Below are positions 34,829-54,833 of a stretch of DNA of 64,000 nt, piece after piece (the stretch's first letter is position 1; every line of letters begins with the position of its first letter). Source of the stretch: a phage. Position numbers and translations under genes: made by a program. The notes beneath the pieces were generated by a model that was given only the letters and a program-made list of their open reading frames with translations, was not told the DNA's origin and did not search any database. Location: assembly GCA_028522875.1 (NCBI GenBank), contig GCA_028522875.1_3659.1; one strand, 5' to 3'.

Positions 34829-36310
34829 TTACTTAGCGTACTCGATTAATTCCACAGTTTTCCCAAAGCTCGGGATATAATTTTTATTATACCCTTCGGT
34901 TAGAACCCATAAAGTATCGTACTTTTTCCACTTGTTGTCAACAGCCTTTTGTTCAAAGTTATGCTCAAAGTATAGGTCGGTCAGGACGATGACATCTTTT
35001 GCATTCGGTATGTTGGCATCCAGATACTCGAACACGCAAGCAGCTGTTGTGCCCCATGTTGAGTGGACCTCATAGTTAATCATCTCGTCTATGTTGCCGC
35101 GAGTGTATACTTTAACCTCTCCAACCTCAGTTGACCAACAGAACATTGTAACCTTAAACTCTTTATACAGATTGCACAATCCGGTGATTTCATTGAACAT
35201 TTTCTTTAAAGTTCTTTGAGAGATCGAGCCAGAAACGTCTAAAGCCACCACAATATCTATAGTGTTTTCCGGATTACGACCAGGAACAATAACGTGCTGG
35301 TTCTTGTTTATAGCCCCAACTTTTCGCATTGTGCTGGTCAAAGACCCAGATCGGCGACCAGGTTTTCTGTAGGTCAGTTCAGCCTTTCGTTTAGACAACA
35401 TGCGTTGCTTAATGATGTCTATATAGTTGATTACAGGCTTACCTCTGTTCTTGACAAACTCACGCACCGCCTCGGGGCAACGGCCTCCGGACGCTTGCAT
35501 TGCTGCCTCCAGCATATCACCAGAGTCCTGCATGGCCTGATCTTTATCAGATTGGCTGATTACAGGTTGTGGCTGATCATACCCCATAGCTTTTCCAAGA
35601 TCATCACTGGTGCCACCGTTCCCACTCATGTGATCATCTGTTTGTCGCTTATCACCTTGAGAGTTCTCACCTTTACCGTTCTTACTTTTACCGTTATTCT
35701 GATCTCTTTGCTTATCAAGAACTGCATAAACGTTCTCAGCAATCCATCCATGAAACTTCATATCGCAGTAGCAGCTGGCTAAGAAGCCAAAAGGCTTACC
35801 TTTCACGAACGTAGTGCTTTTCCCCTTCGGGAAGAAAACACAAGGAGGCTTGCTAAAGTCCACCACAAGTCCTGTGTTGATAACGTGATCACAAGCAATA
35901 TTGAACAGTTCCGGCTCAAAGCTTTTACCACGGACCAGGTGATCACAGATAATATGCCCCACCTCATGCGACAGAAGAAAGGCCACCTCTTTCACAGATT
36001 TGGGGGAATAGAAAACCTCAGCCATCTCAAACTGCTCGTCAGTTAGAGAAGCCTTAAGAATAGCCTTACGTTCATCAGCCAACCCCATAATGAACTCAGG
36101 ACTGTAATAGATGCGTTTATGGTCGGTTGCCATGGTGGAGCACCATGTATGGTTTTCTACGAACTGCAATCCTGACAGCAGTGTGCCATAAAACGGCAGC
36201 TTTTCAAGGAGATACATACGTGCAGCCTGCAACATTCTCAGGGCATCATCTTTTTGTGAGGCAATGATTTCTGAACTTCTGATATCCATTAAAACTCCAG
36301 AAGGGGCCAT
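34829..36310 (-). CDS. vWA domain protein with N-terminal HExxH metallopeptidase-like motif (DUF2201-like, MoxR partner type)
   Basis: 493 aa; HEVGHIICDH (HExxH); C-terminal vWA MIDAS motif DIVVALDVSGSIS (DxSxS); acidic/Gln-rich linker; start codon sits in a GC hairpin. Confidence 0.55.
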   Translation of the reverse strand: MAPSGVLMDIRSSEIIASQKDDALRMLQAARMYLLEKLPFYGTLLSGLQFVENHTWCSTMATDHKRIYYSPEFIMGLADERKAILKASLTDEQFEMAEVFYSPKSVKEVAFLLSHEVGHIICDHLVRGKSFEPELFNIACDHVINTGLVVDFSKPPCVFFPKGKSTTFVKGKPFGFLASCYCDMKFHGWIAENVYAVLDKQRDQNNGKSKNGKGENSQGDKRQTDDHMSGNGGTSDDLGKAMGYDQPQPVISQSDKDQAMQDSGDMLEAAMQASGGRCPEAVREFVKNRGKPVINYIDIIKQRMLSKRKAELTYRKPGRRSGSLTSTMRKVGAINKNQHVIVPGRNPENTIDIVVALDVSGSISQRTLKKMFNEITGLCNLYKEFKVTMFCWSTEVGEVKVYTRGNIDEMINYEVHSTWGTTAACVFEYLDANIPNAKDVIVLTDLYFEHNFEQKAVDNKWKKYDTLWVLTEGYNKNYIPSFGKTVELIEYAK

Positions 36311-36322
36311 TGGCCCCTGTCA

Positions 36323-37366
36323 TTATTTAACGTGTTTGAAAATACCTGCCAACTCGGTCATTGTCATGCGGGTGGTCTTCATAAGATCTGTCATAGCTTT
36401 CTCCATAATTGGAGATACTACCATAAAGTTTCCTTTAGTGAAACCTTTATTCCAGTCGGTCACCAACAGTGGTTTAAGTCCAGCTCCAAGACGTTCACCA
36501 GTTAAAGCACAGCATTTGCGAATATACGAACTCTTAAATTGGCTGAACGACAGATCAACTTTCATACCTACATCGTAGAACGTTTGACAATAGAAAGTGT
36601 AAGCTTTGGCAATCTCAACATCATCAGGTAGTGCAGGAACCTCTTCTGTAAGCTCCTCTTCGACCTCCTGAGTCTCTTTTTCCTCTTCATGCACCTGTTG
36701 CGTCATTTCTTCAATCTCTTCTGTGATAGGCTCGTTTACAATGTCGGAAATGTGCTTCTTGGGTGCACGATAAGTAACTTTAGACATCGGTAGCATATCT
36801 TCCTCCTCTTCTTCGTCAAAGAGTGCTAGTTTATCCTCTTCCGTTCCATATTGCAAGATGAAATCTTCAAAAGTATAATCACCTTTCAATTTCTCCATAC
36901 GCTCTTCGCTCAGGTGGAGCATCATCTGCTGGACAATTTTTCGATCAGTTTCGTCTTTAATCAAGACTGCAGTCTTTTTATCTACCAGACAGTCCTTTAG
37001 AGAGTTGCATCTCAATCCCACCACACAACAGTTATCAACCGCATAAGGACCTTCATCATCTATCCGCTCCAGAGATGGGTAGAAAGGATTTCCCAGCCCG
37101 TTTTCATCTGTGTGCATGTCAAAAGGTATAAGGGTATAGTCGCATACTCCATCTCCTAAAAGTTTTTTACCAAATAGGAGGTATTCTTCCCATGACAGGT
37201 CGAACTCTATATCTCGTTTCCGTGCATTATTCTGTTTGCGTCTATATTTTTTGAGCAAGCGCTCTAACTCTTCTGGTGTATAATATTTTTCAAGATTCAT
37301 GAGTCGTCTCTCGTGCTCTGTAAGTGAAGAAATCGTATCAATTGTCTCAACAGATGTCAACATCAA
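36323..37366 (-). CDS. HNH endonuclease (HNH_3-like His-Me finger) fused to acidic C-terminal region
   Basis: 347 aa; motif PSLERIDDEGPYAVDNCCVVGLRCNSLK resembles HNH_3 (s.dRId...gY...N...v....N..K); Glu-rich C-terminal half; internal MSKVTYRA repeated at start of gene 38631. Confidence 0.5.
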   Translation of the reverse strand: MMLTSVETIDTISSLTEHERRLMNLEKYYTPEELERLLKKYRRKQNNARKRDIEFDLSWEEYLLFGKKLLGDGVCDYTLIPFDMHTDENGLGNPFYPSLERIDDEGPYAVDNCCVVGLRCNSLKDCLVDKKTAVLIKDETDRKIVQQMMLHLSEERMEKLKGDYTFEDFILQYGTEEDKLALFDEEEEEDMLPMSKVTYRAPKKHISDIVNEPITEEIEEMTQQVHEEEKETQEVEEELTEEVPALPDDVEIAKAYTFYCQTFYDVGMKVDLSFSQFKSSYIRKCCALTGERLGAGLKPLLVTDWNKGFTKGNFMVVSPIMEKAMTDLMKTTRMTMTELAGIFKHVK

Positions 37367-46969: not shown

Positions 46970-47029
46970 TAAGATGTTAGTCTAAAGGGGAGGCACTCCT
47001 CCCCACAAAAACTAAGGAAGCACTAAACG

Positions 47030-47332
47030 ATGAAACGTTATAAACCGTACACTTTTGAAATCGATTTCGAACTTGACGATATGTTTACTGTGGAAGCTCA
47101 AGCAGTTGTCCAGTTGCCAGACTCGGAGTGCCGTGACTCTGATGTTGACTATTACGGATTTAGACAAATTACCGATGTGCGTGTTTACCACAACGGTGAA
47201 GAGGTGGACTTCCACCAACTGCCAAACGATATGCGCCACTCAATTTACAAACGTGCAGCCCGTGAACTAGAGTCCTATCTGGATGCAGCGACGACAGCAG
47301 CTGCATTTGCTGAAGAAGTTGGAGGTTTCTGA
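47030..47332 (+). CDS. hypothetical protein
   Basis: 100 aa; RBS ctaaggaag. Confidence 0.45.
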   Translation: MKRYKPYTFEIDFELDDMFTVEAQAVVQLPDSECRDSDVDYYGFRQITDVRVYHNGEEVDFHQLPNDMRHSIYKRAARELESYLDAATTAAAFAEEVGGF

Positions 47333-47727
47333 TGATTACAGGTGTGAAGATTATCCAATACCACTTAACCAAATTAGAAGATGCTGAAAAAGAGCTTGCA
47401 GAAGTTCTGAATAGTGGATATACTTTGCTATCATGCGCCTGCTCAGATACCTACGCTGTGTGGACACTTATCCGGAAGGAAGAGCCTGCATGGACCTTGG
47501 TGCCAAACCCTAAGATTATTAGTGAGGTGGATGACTACCCTCAGGACGGCCTACCAGAAGACTGGGAAGTATGGGAAGGTGGTGAAAACCCTGCACCAGG
47601 TAAGTGGGTAAAATATAAACTACGTGGTGGTGCACAGTACGCTGACTACTCTGATAACCTAGACTGGAGTCATTCTTCACTAGGATCGTCTGCAAGTTCA
47701 TATGATATCGTTGCTTTTCAGGAATAA
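47332..47727 (+). CDS. hypothetical protein
   Basis: 131 aa; ATGA overlap. Confidence 0.45.
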   Translation: MITGVKIIQYHLTKLEDAEKELAEVLNSGYTLLSCACSDTYAVWTLIRKEEPAWTLVPNPKIISEVDDYPQDGLPEDWEVWEGGENPAPGKWVKYKLRGGAQYADYSDNLDWSHSSLGSSASSYDIVAFQE

Positions 47728-47739
47728 GGAGAAGGTGGT

Positions 47740-48222
47740 ATGTCAGATTTTATGTGGAAAGTTGGTTATTCCTCCCCTGAAATGTGTAAGGCCTGTTTTG
47801 TGAAAATAGGTCGCGAAGATATCGACAAAGTGATCCTTAAGTTTCGTGATGTGGCTGTGATCGGCAACCGAGTGCTTAAGCACTTAAAGAATCTGAAGCT
47901 CACCAAAAAGAAATTCTTCGGACTTTTCGAAGAGAAAGTTGATGCTTGGACCCATTGCATTCAGGAAGCTAAATCTCACTACAGTGCTATCGTTACCCCA
48001 GAACGGGTAGCCAAGATGGAAGGACTCATCAACAGCACAGAGTTTGAGTGTCTGAAAGCTGCGCTCGATAGTTATCCGAAATGCCTCAAGCACTTGGACA
48101 AGTATGTAGAAAAGGATGGGGAAATGTATCTCACCCTGGACGCATACTATGAGATGCAAGAAATTTTAAATTTAGATTTGACATTGGTATCCACCGAGTA
48201 TACAATAGGTATCCGGGTTTAA
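47740..48222 (+). CDS. hypothetical protein
   Basis: 160 aa; RBS aaggagaagg. Confidence 0.45.
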   Translation: MSDFMWKVGYSSPEMCKACFVKIGREDIDKVILKFRDVAVIGNRVLKHLKNLKLTKKKFFGLFEEKVDAWTHCIQEAKSHYSAIVTPERVAKMEGLINSTEFECLKAALDSYPKCLKHLDKYVEKDGEMYLTLDAYYEMQEILNLDLTLVSTEYTIGIRV

Positions 48223-48228
48223 CACTAG

Positions 48229-48256
48229 GCCCTGCCCGAAAGGGTGGGGCTTTTTG
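48229..48256 (+). terminator. rho-independent terminator (22-nt element repeated at 59620)
   Basis: gccctgcccgaaagggtggggc hairpin followed by ttttt; identical 22-mer at 59620-59641. Confidence 0.55.
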
Positions 48257-48273
48257 CATTAGGAGACAGCAAA

Positions 48274-49038
48274 TTGAAATTTATCTACAAAGAACACTAC
48301 CACAAAGGTGTTGTGTGGAGTCTATTTGACGGGTCTGGTGGTGCAGTCATTGACTGGGCAAAAGCTGGGTACCTGTGCCTGTGCTTTAATGCAGAAGGTG
48401 CTGATCACGGCAGTTATGCAGAGGTGATAACCGATCATCCCAACATTTACTATGTGGATTATTGGATTGACCCATGGTTCCCTCAGGAAACTTTTTGCAT
48501 GTACCCAGCTCCAGACTTTATTCTTGCATTTCCTCCGTGCACGCATTTAGCGGTATCAGGTGCTGCACATTTTAAGAAAAAGCTGGCTAAGGACCCTATG
48601 ATCCAAATTAATGCTGTAAAGGATGCTCGGGTTGCGGAAGAGCTGGGAGAGATTTACGATTGCCCGTGGCATGTAGAGAATCCTGTAGGTGTTATGTCCA
48701 CACTGTGGCGCAAACCTGATTACCGTTTTCATCCTTCTGACTATGGCGGGTATTTACCGGAGGATGATGTAAACCCTTGGTTTCCTGAATTTATAGCTCC
48801 ACGCGATGCCTATCCAAAAATAACTTGCGGCTGGATAGGTAATGGATTTATAATCCCGGCCACAAAACCTGTCCCGCAAATAGTTGACGCGGTTAGCGGG
48901 TATTCCATGCAACACGCTAAGCTAGGTGGAAAAAGTGCAAGGACGAAGATGATTCGAAGCCTCACACCCCGTGGCTGGGCAAAAGCCGTATTCTTAGCAA
49001 ACGAGCCTGTAGTAAGGAGCAGAATTAATGGGAAGTAA
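48274..49038 (+). CDS. DNA (cytosine-5)-methyltransferase-like protein (short form)
   Basis: Motif I LFDGSGG (FxGxGG), motif IV FPPCTHLAVSGA (PC), motif VI HVENPVG (ENV-like); probable TTG start 48274 after aggaga since track start 48244 lies in terminator. Confidence 0.45.
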   Translation: MKFIYKEHYHKGVVWSLFDGSGGAVIDWAKAGYLCLCFNAEGADHGSYAEVITDHPNIYYVDYWIDPWFPQETFCMYPAPDFILAFPPCTHLAVSGAAHFKKKLAKDPMIQINAVKDARVAEELGEIYDCPWHVENPVGVMSTLWRKPDYRFHPSDYGGYLPEDDVNPWFPEFIAPRDAYPKITCGWIGNGFIIPATKPVPQIVDAVSGYSMQHAKLGGKSARTKMIRSLTPRGWAKAVFLANEPVVRSRINGK

Positions 49039-51106
49039 ATTTATGGCATCTGCATATAACCGTTTCGGTGAGCCAAACCCGAAAGCAACTAAGTATAAAA
49101 GTGGGGGAAGTGTGAAACGAGACTATCGTGATGAAAAAGAGGTTGAAACTGTAGAGACTGTTTTAGAAAATACTAAAATCGTCCCTGTCCCACAACAAAA
49201 TATCGGTCTGATGGCTGCACAATATTTTGGTGTGCGATCAGCATTGTCCCAAGAAGACGGTGTGACAGTTACTGCAACATATTTCCCATATTACGACCGC
49301 TACGGGAATCTGTCCGGTTTCAAAAAGCGTGACTGGACGATCCCCAAAGAGCAACGTGGGCACTTTACGACGGTTGGGATCGTAAAGGCTAACTCCCAAA
49401 TGTTTGGGCAAAAGCTGTGTGCATCTTCTAACAACCGTAAGCAGATTAACGTTTGTGAGGGGGAAGGCGATGTTATTGCAGCATGGCAGGCTGCATATCA
49501 GATACAAGTAAAAGGGATTCTCACCAACGCTAAAGCCCCGGCAAAGGTGAAACAGTGGGCTAAAGAGGTCCAGGACGGGATCGATGCAGTTATCAACGGG
49601 GGTGATCTGGCAGGAAAACCCTGCCTACCTTTTGTTGGAATTAACTGTGGATGTGCAAACGCAGTAGATACTTTTGCAAACAATGAGAAATTTATCCGTA
49701 GCTACGGAACAGTGGTCCTTGCAATGGACAACGATGCAGCTAACGAGGTAGAGAAGCAAAAACACGTTATCAAAGGTGTTGAAGCCACACATAATATCGC
49801 GGCATTTTTGATGGCTGATAACGTTTACCACGTGGAATACCCCAGCGAGGTAAACGACCCTGACGGTGTAAAAGATATCCGTGACATGCTGAAGGCTAAA
49901 AAGCTGGAAGATATTGTCAACATGTTCCGTCACCCAGTCAAATATGTGCCCGATGCTGTATCTGATTTAGAAGACTTCTCCATTGAATCTCTTCGTAAGA
50001 AGACTTCTAATGGCGTAGATATCAGCGCGGAGTTCCCTAAATTGCAGAAGATGCTGAAAGGACTCCACAAAGGCACCTTGATGATGCTGACAGGCCCATC
50101 TGGCGGTGGTAAAACAACTGTAGCCAAGAAACTAGAGCACTGCATTGCAAAATACTTGATGGATCCGACATGCCCTAAAGCCGATGATTATGAAGAGGAT
50201 GATCGCCTGTGTCTGATTCACCTTGAAGAGGACCCTGAGGAAGCAATTAACTCTCTATACGCCAACCAGTTGGGGTTTGATGTTAAAGAGTTTGTTGAAG
50301 ACCCTAGTCAGTTCCTGACTGATCAGGAGCATGCTGAGATTCACCAATCTTGGGCCAAGGCTGGAAAAATCAAAGTGTTCAAGCATTTTGGGTCTATTCC
50401 TGTAGATGAGTTGATCACTAAGCTTAAACAAATGGTGTGTCTGTATCACTGCCGTTATATTGTGCTGGATCACCTGTCCATGGTAATTTCAGGGCTTAAT
50501 GTTAAGGATGAGCGCAAAGAACTTGACATGGCTATGACGCAACTAGCCGCGTTCTGTAAGCAGTTTAATGTATTTATCTTGGTGATCGCTCACCTGAAAC
50601 GCACAGAGATTGTGCCTCCAAAGGACAAGGATGGGAATCCGTTACCTTTTTGGTATCCTGTACGAAAAGAGAACCTTCGGGGTAGTGCCGGATTGGAGCA
50701 ACTTAGCTGGGTAGTTGTTGGGGTGGAGGCAGAAGAGATGGTGGATCGTTCCCGTGGACGTGTCCGACTGGTAGGTCTTAAAAACCGCCCAGCAAAAACG
50801 TTAGGCATTGCGGATACCTTAGTTATGGATCCCCACACAGGTAAGTTCCATGATGCCAGCAACTGGTACTGGGACAAAGAAATGCAGATGTTCACAGACG
50901 GCGAAGGTGGGGAGGTTGTTTGGAGACCTCAAGCTATGTTTGAGGATCAAGAGCACGCAGTTGTAGAAACACCTGTAGGTAGGGTTGTGGCTGATAAGGT
51001 TGTAACTCCTACTGTTAACCCTGTTGACACACAAGAAGACCTTCCGTATGATGATCCGTCCTCTGACCCTGTTCCAGGTTTTGAAGACGATGAAACACCT
51101 TTTTAA
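49028..51106 (+). CDS. primase-helicase (Toprim primase fused to DnaB/gp4-like helicase)
   Basis: Toprim-like CEGEGDVIA and LAMDNDAANE; helicase Walker A LTGPSGGGKTT and Walker B-like YIVLDHLS; acidic C-terminal tail. Confidence 0.65.
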   Translation: MGSKFMASAYNRFGEPNPKATKYKSGGSVKRDYRDEKEVETVETVLENTKIVPVPQQNIGLMAAQYFGVRSALSQEDGVTVTATYFPYYDRYGNLSGFKKRDWTIPKEQRGHFTTVGIVKANSQMFGQKLCASSNNRKQINVCEGEGDVIAAWQAAYQIQVKGILTNAKAPAKVKQWAKEVQDGIDAVINGGDLAGKPCLPFVGINCGCANAVDTFANNEKFIRSYGTVVLAMDNDAANEVEKQKHVIKGVEATHNIAAFLMADNVYHVEYPSEVNDPDGVKDIRDMLKAKKLEDIVNMFRHPVKYVPDAVSDLEDFSIESLRKKTSNGVDISAEFPKLQKMLKGLHKGTLMMLTGPSGGGKTTVAKKLEHCIAKYLMDPTCPKADDYEEDDRLCLIHLEEDPEEAINSLYANQLGFDVKEFVEDPSQFLTDQEHAEIHQSWAKAGKIKVFKHFGSIPVDELITKLKQMVCLYHCRYIVLDHLSMVISGLNVKDERKELDMAMTQLAAFCKQFNVFILVIAHLKRTEIVPPKDKDGNPLPFWYPVRKENLRGSAGLEQLSWVVVGVEAEEMVDRSRGRVRLVGLKNRPAKTLGIADTLVMDPHTGKFHDASNWYWDKEMQMFTDGEGGEVVWRPQAMFEDQEHAVVETPVGRVVADKVVTPTVNPVDTQEDLPYDDPSSDPVPGFEDDETPF

Positions 51107-51164
51107 TGTTTAACCAAGAGTGGGAGGGGTAGTACAACCGCCTCCCCTTTAAGGAGAACTGTAT

Positions 51165-54100
51165 ATGAGCATGTGGTCTTTCGATTTTGAGTCATCCGGT
51201 TTGCTGGAAGACCCAGATCTTTATTATCACTGCGGCCTGTTTAAAGAGCTGAATAAGAACCGTTTTATGCTGTTCCTTCCTCTAAATGACCGCACACACT
51301 ACTCTGAAGAGGATATAGAGAAGGCTAAGAACTTTATTCTGGCAAAGAAAACTCTTTATAAAGATTTTGAAGTTCGCATAGCAGATTTTTCAGAGTTGGA
51401 AGGTTGGCTTACAGGAAATTCTGACTGGTCACCCACAGCTTTGAACTGCCACAACTGCTACAGCTACGACTTTATGCTGATGGAGAGATTGTCCGGTATT
51501 CATTTTGATATGTTCCGTGACCCTAAGTGTATGGGGACTATCAACGACCACCAGGTTAATCTGTTTGATACGTTGGCGATGAGCCGAATCTTGTGGCCTG
51601 ATCGCCCTTTACCAAAAGGTTGTCCGGACTCTGTATTCAACCCGGTTACTAAGAAAATGCAGCCTGTTGGTCCTCACGGCCTTATGGCATGGGGCTACGC
51701 CCTTGGTAACCAGAAAGTTCAAATTGATGACTGGCGCGATCTTCCGTTGTGGAAGTATGTGGATCGTGTATTCGAGGACGTTATCATCCAGGAGCTGCTC
51801 TGGAAAGAGCTGGTAGCGGAATCAAAAGGTGTATTCTACGGCAAATCTGACATGCAGAACTTTATGTACGATCCAGCCAAAGAGAAGCCGAAAGGGTTCA
51901 AGAAGATCACCTGGAAGAACGCACTACGTCGAGGCATGCTGCAGCACTTCCTGATGGAGCTGCAGGCCCGTCAGGGTGTATACTTCGACATAGATGGAGC
52001 TATTGCTTTACGTGACCGTTGCGATGCGTGGATGAAAGAAATCGCTGATCGTGTTGAACCACAACTACCTTTAAAAGAGCTGTCAATGTCTCAGCGGCCC
52101 AAGTTCCCTGAAAAGCCGTTTAACCAAGACGGGACAATCTCTAATAATGGTTGGAAATGGTTAAAAGATAAGCTTGGCTATCCTGTAGACATGAGCGCTT
52201 TAGATTTCAAAGCCCCGCCTAAGCGAGCATTTACCTCTACAGGAGATGTCAGCAAGATGGGGATAAAATGGTGTGAAGAGATGGGCTGCAAAGACCCCGA
52301 TAAGATGGCTGATTTCTTGAGAGGCTATATTAAGGGCACTTCCACACCTCACCCTTTGCCTAAAGAGCTGATGGATCAGGCAATAAGTGATCTACAGCAG
52401 AAGCGAATGCCGGACTGCAAGATACCTATGAAAATCAGCAATCAGGACGACATTAAGCGGTATCTGATCAGTGCTGGCTGGCTACCGACAATGTGGAGAA
52501 CTAAGGATGTAACTAAAGATAGCAAGAAGAAAGCTCTACCTGATGCGGATGTTGATGCACGAGTATATGCATATATGGACGAGCTTTTAGAGTCAGAGTA
52601 TTGTGACCTGATTATCAACTTCTGGAACAAAACTGATGCCAAGTTCCAGACAACTGTGCACAAGTTCCGAAGCTTTCCTAACTCTGAAAGGATTAAAAAG
52701 GAAGTATTCGGGAAAATACGTAGAAAAGCCAGAGCACTTATTACTTCTCCGCAACTGAAAGATACGTTTGGACACCTGTGTCCGAATCTTGAAAAATTGA
52801 ACGGAGAGATGGCTAAAGATATCGTCTTGTGGTTATCATTGCGAAACCGCAGATCAGTCCTTGATCCAATCAAGGAGGATAAGGTTGATACTGGTCTTCT
52901 TAATCACCCACGTTTGAAGATTGACCATAAGCTTCCTGCTAAAAGCTCTGGATTAACAAACACTTCCAGACAGAAACACAGTATTTGTGCAAACATGCCT
53001 AAACCATCCCCTAAAGTGGTTATGGGTAAAGAGATGCGCAGTCTGTGGGGTGTTCCTCCTGGATACTTTCAGATCGGTATTGACGGGTCCAACTTAGAGC
53101 AGCTTATCGGGGCTTGGGGTGCCTTTGAGTTCGACAACGGCCTGTATTACGATGTTGTAAGTAACGGCGATGCACATTGTTATTCAGGAGATACACAAAT
53201 TCTCACGGAGAAAGGGTGGGTGAGGTTTGAAGATCTTGATCCGGGAACACAAGTGTTCCAGTACGATCACAACACCTCGTCAATGAACCTTGTTACTCCA
53301 TTAAATTACGTTAAGCGTAGTTATTATGGAGATATGTATCATTTCCACAACAGTAGTGTGGATTTTATGGTTACAGATCAACACAGGATGCTGACTGTGG
53401 ATCACAGAAGCAATAAATTGTTTGAAGATTTGGCAAAAGACCTGAAAGCAGGTAAAGGGTCTAATTCAGGAAGAAGGTTTATCCATGCGGCAGAGTTTTA
53501 TGGGAATACAGCCTTATCTCCTGCCCAGGTTAATTTGCTTATTGCTATTCACGATGATGGGCACTTGCATACAAATAAGGACGGCAGCATCGTGTGCAGG
53601 ATTCAGGTCGGAAAGGGAAGAAAAGTTGCAACGCTTTTAGATACTTTTTCTGCTCTAAGCCTTAGTTATGTAGAGCAGAGCGGGAAAACCACAAAAGGAG
53701 GCTTACTGGCGAGAAGGTTCCAATTCCACGTTCCGTCTTGGGTATTTGAGTTTTTGGACAGCAATAAGGATTTCACCTACAACCTGATGAACCTTGATAA
53801 AGAATCTAAAAACCTGTTTATAGCTTCTTTATCTAACTGGGACGGGTGGGTATCTTCAGAAGGTGGAAAGGTTGCTTACTACTCCCAGGCCGAGTGTAGG
53901 AAGAAATCTGTAGAGGTGGTGTCTGCGCTGGCTACTCAGTGTGGTTTACGGAATAATACGGTGGCGATTCACAAAAAAGGTCGTGCCGTGCAGCACAGAA
54001 TCACAATTGGTAGCAAACAGAGAGCAGGGTTGCTGACACTATCTAAAGAGTCTGTCGAGGTGAGCGGTTCTTTGGTTTATTGCGTTACCGTCCCTTCTGG

Positions 54101-54557
54101 AGCAATCATTGTGAGAAGGAATGGTAAAGTGGCAGTGTGCGGTAACTGTAATAACGCCAAAGCTTACTCTTCTGTAGCAGGCAAGGAGATTTCCCGTAAC
54201 GATGGTAAGCCTATCACGTATGGGGTTATGTACGGGGCACAAAAAGATAAAGTTGCAGATATGCTGGACATCTCTCCAGAGTTGGGACAAAGGGTAATCG
54301 ATGCACTCTGGGATGCCAACCCTGGTCTCAAGGGGCGCAAAGAGGATCTGGAGAAATTCTGGGAAGCAACTGGTAAGAAGTTTATCTACTCTTTTGATGG
54401 TCATGCTATCTGGACCAGATCTAAACACTCTTTACTTAATGCATACCAACAGAATGGTGGTGCATCGCTGTGTGACTTAGTTGGGATACTTATGCACCAC
54501 CAAATGGTGAAGCGTGGGTGGTACGATGAAGGTGTTCGTCGTATTATTTATTACCAT
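51165..54557 (+). CDS. DNA polymerase, family A (T7-like), exon 1; contains an in-frame intein
   Basis: 3'-5' exo motif FDFESSG; motif A IGIDGSNLEQLIGAW; motif B KPITYGVMYG; ORF stops right after ...IIYYH-K at motif C position. Confidence 0.8.
53178..54146 (+). mobile_element. intein (Hint domain with degenerate LAGLIDADG-like endonuclease region) in DNA polymerase
   Basis: 323-codon insert between pol motifs A and B: starts CYSGDTQILTEKGWVRFEDL (block A), TxxH block B at VTDQHRMLT, ends ...RRNGKVAVCGN with +1 Cys; flanks align with T7 pol NGDIHTKNQIA. Confidence 0.6.
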
Positions 54558-54833
54558 AAATAACATTGTGGCTTCATAGAGTAATCTATGTCGAATAACC
54601 TCTTTAACTGCGGGAAGCCTAAACCTTATGGCAAGGTAATCCGCAACGAAGCGCTCAAAAGAGCGAACGCTCAGAGGCCATTCCGAAAGGAAGTAGACCA
54701 GCAAGTGCGGTCGAAATGGGAGGATTCCTGTGGTTGCTTATCATAGGAATATGAGATGGTCCGATCCTACGTGAAAACGTATGGCTATGCACGTAATGGT
54801 GCGGGGTAGCTTAACGACCTACCTGAACTATTG
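54558..54833 (+). ncRNA. group I self-splicing intron (no ORF) interrupting DNA polymerase motif C
   Basis: 5' exon ends in U (54557), intron ends in G (54833); P1 exon CCAU with intron GUGG (54567-54570); core elements P CUGCGGGAAG (54607-54616), Q AAUCCGCAAC (54637-54646), R GUAGACCAGC (54692-54701), S GAGAUGGUCCG (54752-54762); splicing restores YYH-DEYQ. Confidence 0.75.

Follow-up and report, generated by a model that had tools for sequence, protein, structure and literature searches.

Escape from retron Ec86 has linked this defence system to a phage-encoded methyltransferase in phage K42, a strain of KarlJaspers/Bas06, from which retron Ec86 escape mutants were isolated (bioRxiv 10.1101/2023.08.16.553469; according to a citing paper, this preprint later appeared as Wang et al., Cell Rep 2024). 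In every K42 escaper, a 711-bp gene was disrupted that codes for a "Dcm-like C5 cytosine methyltransferase". Expression of this K42 Dcm increased 5mC in msDNA in vivo (LC-MS) and triggered retron defence, and neither effect was seen with a C82A/E128A/K175A/K176A mutant, in which two of the exchanged residues, K175 and K176, had been modelled as a substrate-binding pair. These experiments were carried out in MG1655, where 5mC in msDNA remained low, and the retron inactive, as long as the phage enzyme was not expressed; the host Dcm of this strain, unlike the phage enzyme, led to neither high msDNA 5mC nor a retron trigger. Defence was abolished when the CCTGG in the msDNA stem was changed, in the ACTGG as well as the CATGG mutant, and the CCWGG specificity of K42 Dcm is assumed from host Dcm and backed only by these msDNA site mutants.

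Several other C5-methyltransferases serve for comparison. E. coli Dcm and M.EcoRII-type enzymes recognize CCWGG and belong to PF00145; the structure of Shigella Dcm has been solved (3lx6 and 3me5), with a 3me5 chain of 482 aa. M.HhaI, with 327 aa, has clear motifs VIII (QxRxR), IX and X, and its recognition domain comprises about 80 residues. In our PDB searches, bacterial C5-methyltransferase chains with a solved structure ranged from 320 to 480 aa. The eukaryotic DNMT3A and DNMT3B are CpG-specific and have been solved as complexes with DNMT3L or as homo-tetramers. CmoX of Synechococcus phage S-B43 (PDB 8yf3) is a DNA cytosine C5-carboxymethyltransferase of 372 aa, which uses Cx-SAM via a conserved Arg350 and is usually accompanied by CmoA and CmoY (PMC12783734).

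The locus and its genome context

The gene analyzed here lies in a stretch of 64,000 nucleotides of phage DNA (referred to as the window) that represents an rV5-like E. coli myophage of the genus Vequintavirus. Bases 47000-52000 exhibited 99% identity to MiataMamis and LL12 and 98% identity to rV5. Near-identical phages carry this gene under the annotation DNA cytosine methyltransferase or Dcm-like; the LL12 record lists the CDS as "DNA cytosine methyltransferase", and in rV5 it is ORF 231, a conserved hypothetical protein. Searches with window bases 47000-52000 and with the methyltransferase protein also matched approximately 16-39 GenBank records (MG0656xx) named 'Campylobacter phage' with C. 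jejuni as host, which are 94-99% identical to the E. coli Vequintavirus region; their host labels look doubtful, or the preparations look mixed. The features of the locus are compiled in Table 1.

Table 1. Features of the methyltransferase locus; positions refer to the window and residue numbers to the methyltransferase
Feature	Position	Strand	Basis and remarks
Sigma-70-type promoter-like site, TTGACA-17-TACAAT	48178..48206	+	Consensus scan, 11/12
Terminator-like hairpin and T run	48227..48257	+	Sequence; 11 pairs, 7 of them G-C, loop GAAA
Ribosome-binding site AGGAG	48261..48265	+	Sequence, 8 nt 5' of TTG; LL12 annotation
Methyltransferase CDS, 254 aa, PHROG 757 family	48274..49038	+	ORF table, profile, fold, LL12 annotation
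Motif I LFDGSGG, residues 17-23, putative SAM-binding loop	48322..48342	+	Aligned with motif I of DNMT2 and M.HaeIII; conserved in the family
Motif IV FPPCT, residues 86-90	48529..48543	+	C89 invariant; aligns with the PPCQ/FPCQ Cys of HaeIII, DNMT2 and HhaI
Cys89 codon, putative catalytic nucleophile	48538-48540	+	Equivalent to C82 of K42 Dcm
Motif VI ENPV, residues 135-138	48676..48687	+	E135 and P137 invariant; aligns with HhaI ENV
Glu135, putative N3-protonating residue	within 48676..48687	+	Equivalent to E128 of K42 Dcm
Lys182-Ile183	48817..48822	+	BLASTP; equivalent to K175-K176 of K42 Dcm; family consensus K-K
C-terminal conserved block RSLTPRGWAKAV, residues 228-239	48955..48990	+	Alignments, model secondary structure
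Primase/helicase gene	49028..51106	+	ORF table; ATG at 49028 overlaps the methyltransferase stop by 11 nt

The ORF table contains one long plus-strand ORF at this locus (48244..49038), within which translation likely starts at the TTG at 48274 rather than at the GTG at 48244. This start is preferred because the GTG falls within the 11-pair hairpin (stem 48227-48252) that is followed by the T run, because AGGAG is suitably placed ahead of the TTG, and because LL12 has an identical 765-nt CDS with an identical ribosome-binding site annotated. The annotated ORF 231 of rV5, also 765 nt, and the N-terminal 'FIYK' extension, which is retained in an 80%-identical relative, argue for the same start. 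The initial annotation had proposed this TTG, a product of about 255 aa and a position between a terminator and the primase-helicase gene, all of which agree with the 254 residues of the protein, the hairpin with its T run upstream and the ATG of the primase/helicase gene downstream.

The promoter-like site occupies the homologous position of the 'Sigma70-type promoter; P231' in the rV5 record DQ832317, and the hairpin is placed between this site and the methyltransferase gene. The order of elements in window 48178-48273 is a strong sigma-70-like promoter (rV5 'P231'), the terminator-like hairpin and the ribosome-binding site, followed by the TTG, and transcripts from the P231-like promoter would start about 15 nt ahead of the hairpin. 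The hairpin could be a leaky terminator, an attenuator or a 5' stabilising hairpin. The methyltransferase and primase/helicase genes probably form one operon, since they overlap.

In its vicinity lie the genes for a Dda-like helicase, the primase/helicase and the DNA polymerase, together with four small ORFs without assigned function; inspection of these neighbour ORFs revealed no restriction endonuclease adjoining the methyltransferase gene, in line with the earlier statement that a cognate restriction enzyme is missing nearby. The only nuclease-like ORFs are two adjacent ones on the minus strand (window 34829-37366), of 493 and 347 aa, both with matches to PHROG 'HNH endonuclease' families and the latter with further matches to 'decoy of host sigma70 / Srd anti-sigma factor' families. 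As possible restriction partners these HNH ORFs at 34.8-37.4 kb were rejected because of their distance of about 11 kb, their opposite orientation and their homing-endonuclease type. Two genes upstream of the methyltransferase, a 100-aa ORF (window 47030-47332, plus strand) exhibited a weak match to PHROG 1573 'DNA methyltransferase' (E 2e-4), while its top family is of unknown function and Pfam gave no match. The DNA polymerase ORF (window 51165-54563, plus strand; 1,132 aa) carries an intein-like insert starting 'CYSGDTQILTEKGW...', with a weak Pfam Hint_2 match below the cut-off (residues 672-706, E 9e-4); its LL12 homologue is annotated as intron-interrupted and covers fewer bases.

Family membership, motifs and fold

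In a profile search, residues 2-251 of the protein matched positions 5-226 of the 247 positions of PHROG 757 'DNA methyltransferase' (E 1.2e-85). A large protein collection contained 3,544 homologues, the best 120 of which were 52-99% identical, and an exhaustive search of 50%-identity representatives yielded 1,025 clusters, nearly all of 210-260 aa. The gene therefore belongs to a compact family and is not a truncated one. By tblastn, a PHROG 757 gene was present in 1,506 of 50,697 phage records, mostly from enterobacterial phages. Among the 60 records listed were rV5-like phages, Drexlerviridae (egaa, KarlJaspers), Dhillonvirus/HK578-type and Phi1-type T4-like phages, Cronobacter phage CR8 and many Klebsiella phages. 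Annotations of these genes range from "hypothetical" to "Dcm". In several phage groups the gene resides in DNA replication modules beside a helicase or primase, and in an E. coli prophage a homologue is flanked by a Dam methylase gene on one side and the genes for NinG and RusA on the other, within a group of phage early genes.

The tested K42 enzyme can be placed in the same family based on the length of its gene and its residue numbering. The KarlJaspers gene bas06_0055 has the same length as K42 dcm, 711 bp, and in the egaa protein, which is 94.5% identical, C82, E128, K175 and K176 bear exactly the numbers given for K42 Dcm. BLASTP aligned the window protein with the bas06_0055 product at 54% identity over 235 aa (E 4e-87), which equates C89 with C82, E135 with E128 and K182 with K175. 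The two proteins thus share family, compact length class, the Cys, Glu and Lys positions and an orphan location beside replication genes. In contrast, the window protein has about nine additional N-terminal and about 11 additional C-terminal residues, has Ile183 where K42 Dcm has Lys176, and is encoded by a myovirus (Vequintavirus) instead of a Drexlerviridae siphovirus.

General domain models did not detect the protein. Searches of the window protein against Pfam (even at E<=10) and NCBIfam returned no match, and phmmer of the PDB with the single protein found no methyltransferase and no significant pairwise match to a solved C5-methyltransferase. The search with PF00145 proposed in the initial annotation consequently failed to support the assignment for the window protein, which stays below the gathering cut-off of 22 bits, and three relatives (P0053, P0071 and P0072) pass it with 24.7-28.5 bits through matches spanning only profile positions 4-94, i.e. 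motifs I-IV. The family profile matched DNMT2 (E 0.53) and M.HaeIII (E 1.1) weakly, its motif I and FPPC being placed on the motif I and PPCQ of these enzymes, respectively. Profile comparisons with M.HhaI alone or with an HhaI-like alignment were not significant and were uninformative or spurious, and neither was a local hmmsearch with HhaI significant; the HhaI database search had returned only relatives of at least 71% identity, too narrow a set for a canonical profile.

Motifs I (LFDGSGG, residues 17-23), IV (FPPC, 86-89) and VI (ENP, 135-137) occur in the order typical of C-5 cytosine-specific DNA methylases (PF00145), as had been noted before. C89, E135 and P137 did not vary in alignments of 37 close and 61 distant relatives, in which F86, P87, N136 and K182 were almost unchanged as well, and the invariance of the former three argues that the motifs are not chance occurrences. 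Motif VIII (QxRxR) was not recognizable; the corresponding strand reads Y-P-K-(K/I)-T-C-x-W and contains the nearly invariant K182. Only one C-terminal conserved block, RS.TP.GFA.AV, was found at the usual place of motifs IX and X. In the window protein this block (RSLTPRGWAKAV) forms the start of the terminal helix and combines a motif IX-like sequence (RxLTPRE.AR) with the location of the motif X helix, and the family alignments contained no recognizable separate motif X (GNxV). According to alignments and model secondary structure, strand beta-7 and the last helix are only about 40 residues apart.

Structure comparison of the model confirmed that a C5-methyltransferase fold is present, a point that had been left to be checked, with DNMT3A and DNMT3B as the best structural matches (12-16% identity in the structural alignments). 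This likeness is one of fold and compactness, not of close kinship. With its 254 aa the window protein is well below the bacterial chains of known structure, the Shigella Dcm chain being about twice as long, and it has no detectable pairwise sequence similarity to E. coli Dcm or M.EcoRII-type enzymes, whose PF00145 domain is unmatched here.

PHROG 757 membership, fold, invariant motifs, public annotation and the tested relative all bear out the initial annotation of a compact orphan C5-cytosine-methyltransferase-like gene. A role in DNA modification, also put forward there, is made probable by the family assignment, the fold, the catalytic motifs and the experiments on the K42 relative. The further suggestion of an unusual new small base-modifying enzyme was not supported, as the family is very large and already named and its tested member makes ordinary 5-methylcytosine. 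The gene is an ordinary and already known one, annotated in near-identical genomes, and the very large family to which it belongs includes a characterised enzyme.

Proposed activity and alternative readings

The ORF is very probably the gene for an orphan DNA cytosine-5 methyltransferase that depends on SAM and belongs to the compact 'Dcm-like' phage family PHROG 757. It would be transcribed together with the replication genes from its own sigma-70-type promoter-like site, in keeping with the overlap with the primase-helicase gene, and presumably be expressed at a time when it can act on newly made phage DNA. By analogy with the family, SAM would be held by the motif I loop FDGSG and residue 39, which is Asn here and Asp in most of the family, and the target cytosine would be flipped out. 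Conservation and fold suggest that C6 is attacked by Cys89 (in FPPC) and N3 protonated by Glu135 (in ENP), to which the quadruple mutant of K42 Dcm adds indirect support; as in the family, the methyl group would then be transferred to C5 and beta-elimination would free the enzyme. The recognition module is probably very small, since so few residues separate strand beta-7 from the last helix. A CCWGG-like target site serves as a working assumption derived from the msDNA mutants in a dcm+ host.

The likely benefit of such methylation would be site-specific protection from cytosine-sensitive restriction, e.g. by EcoRII-type enzymes, and its likely cost would be that methyltransferase activity is sensed by retron Eco1/Ec86. 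Avoidance of CCWGG was looked for in the whole window and only a mild, not clearly significant depletion was observed (97 sites versus 118 +/- 12 expected from dinucleotide-preserving shuffles). The Vequintavirinae were exceptionally sensitive to the RM systems tested in the BASEL study, so any protection would be narrow, which fits site-specific methylation and not a global modification. The literature yielded no methylome or restriction-digest data for rV5-like phages.

MG1655 is a dcm+ strain. In the K42 study, its host Dcm did not trigger the retron and the phage enzyme did, with the ACTGG and CATGG mutants lacking defence, which hints that the phage enzyme is functionally unlike host Dcm in dose, site or substrate form. 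It is tentatively possible that the window enzyme is an active C5-methyltransferase whose specificity or substrate departs from that of host Dcm, and such a departure would explain why phages of dcm+ hosts keep the gene. The enzyme might read a shorter or relaxed site, methylate both CCWGG cytosines or favour hairpin or single-stranded DNA. Besides the retron data, the tiny recognition region, the fact that the closest structural matches, DNMT3A/B, read only CpG, and the retention of PHROG 757 in 1,506 phage records, mostly of enterobacteria, are consistent with this possibility. On the other hand, over-expression alone could account for the difference from host Dcm, and the CCTGG requirement agrees with a Dcm-like site. 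Extending this to the compact family as a whole, we consider it unlikely, if worth stating, that its members are not mere duplicates of host Dcm and that their specificity is relaxed or otherwise altered, or hairpin or replicating DNA is favoured, a reading based on the almost absent recognition domain and the lack of recognizable motifs VIII and X. If true, it would explain the retention in many enterobacterial phages and the triggering of retron Ec86 by the phage enzyme and not by host Dcm, and in the Vequintavirinae the enzyme might counter some defence outside those tested so far.

It is highly improbable that the protein is no DNA methyltransferase in vivo and instead methylates RNA at m5C, comparable to DNMT2 acting on tRNA, or is a catalytically idle DNA-binding protein. 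In favour of this reading, the C5-methyltransferase sequence that the family profile matches best is DNMT2 (E 0.53 only), recognizable motifs VIII and X are missing, and the rV5 paper states that tRNA genes are present in the phage itself. Against it, more than 1,000 clusters share the catalytic Cys and Glu without exception, the K42 relative methylates DNA in vivo, and the gene is located in DNA replication modules of several phage groups, beside a helicase or primase.

Transfer of a non-methyl group, such as carboxymethyl from Cx-SAM as by CmoX, in a first step of cytosine hypermodification is scarcely credible: the family member K42 Dcm gives 5mC in E. coli K-12 (MG1655), the Vequintavirinae are highly RM-sensitive, and the window ORFs scanned contained no CmoA, CmoY, ligase, glycosyltransferase or TET-like gene. 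Of the features described for CmoX (PMC12783734), neither a conserved Arg at the HhaI Asn304 position was seen in the family nor CmoA/CmoY partners among these ORFs. Arg233 was considered as a CmoX-type Cx-SAM-binding Arg and rejected, as M, K, L, S or another residue takes its place elsewhere in the wider family and 5mC is the product of the tested relative.

Implications for rV5-like phages and the PHROG 757 family

The preferred reading, a compact Dcm-like C5-methyltransferase, concerns a family that automated pipelines often label 'hypothetical', as is the case for several of the matching records, because Pfam and NCBIfam miss this very common group of phage methyltransferases. It predicts 5mC at specific sites in the DNA of rV5-like phages used for therapy or biocontrol, and retron Eco1/Ec86 may sense these phages. 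If the specificity does differ from that of host Dcm, the wide retention of the gene would be explained and the family would provide a very small C5-methyltransferase scaffold.
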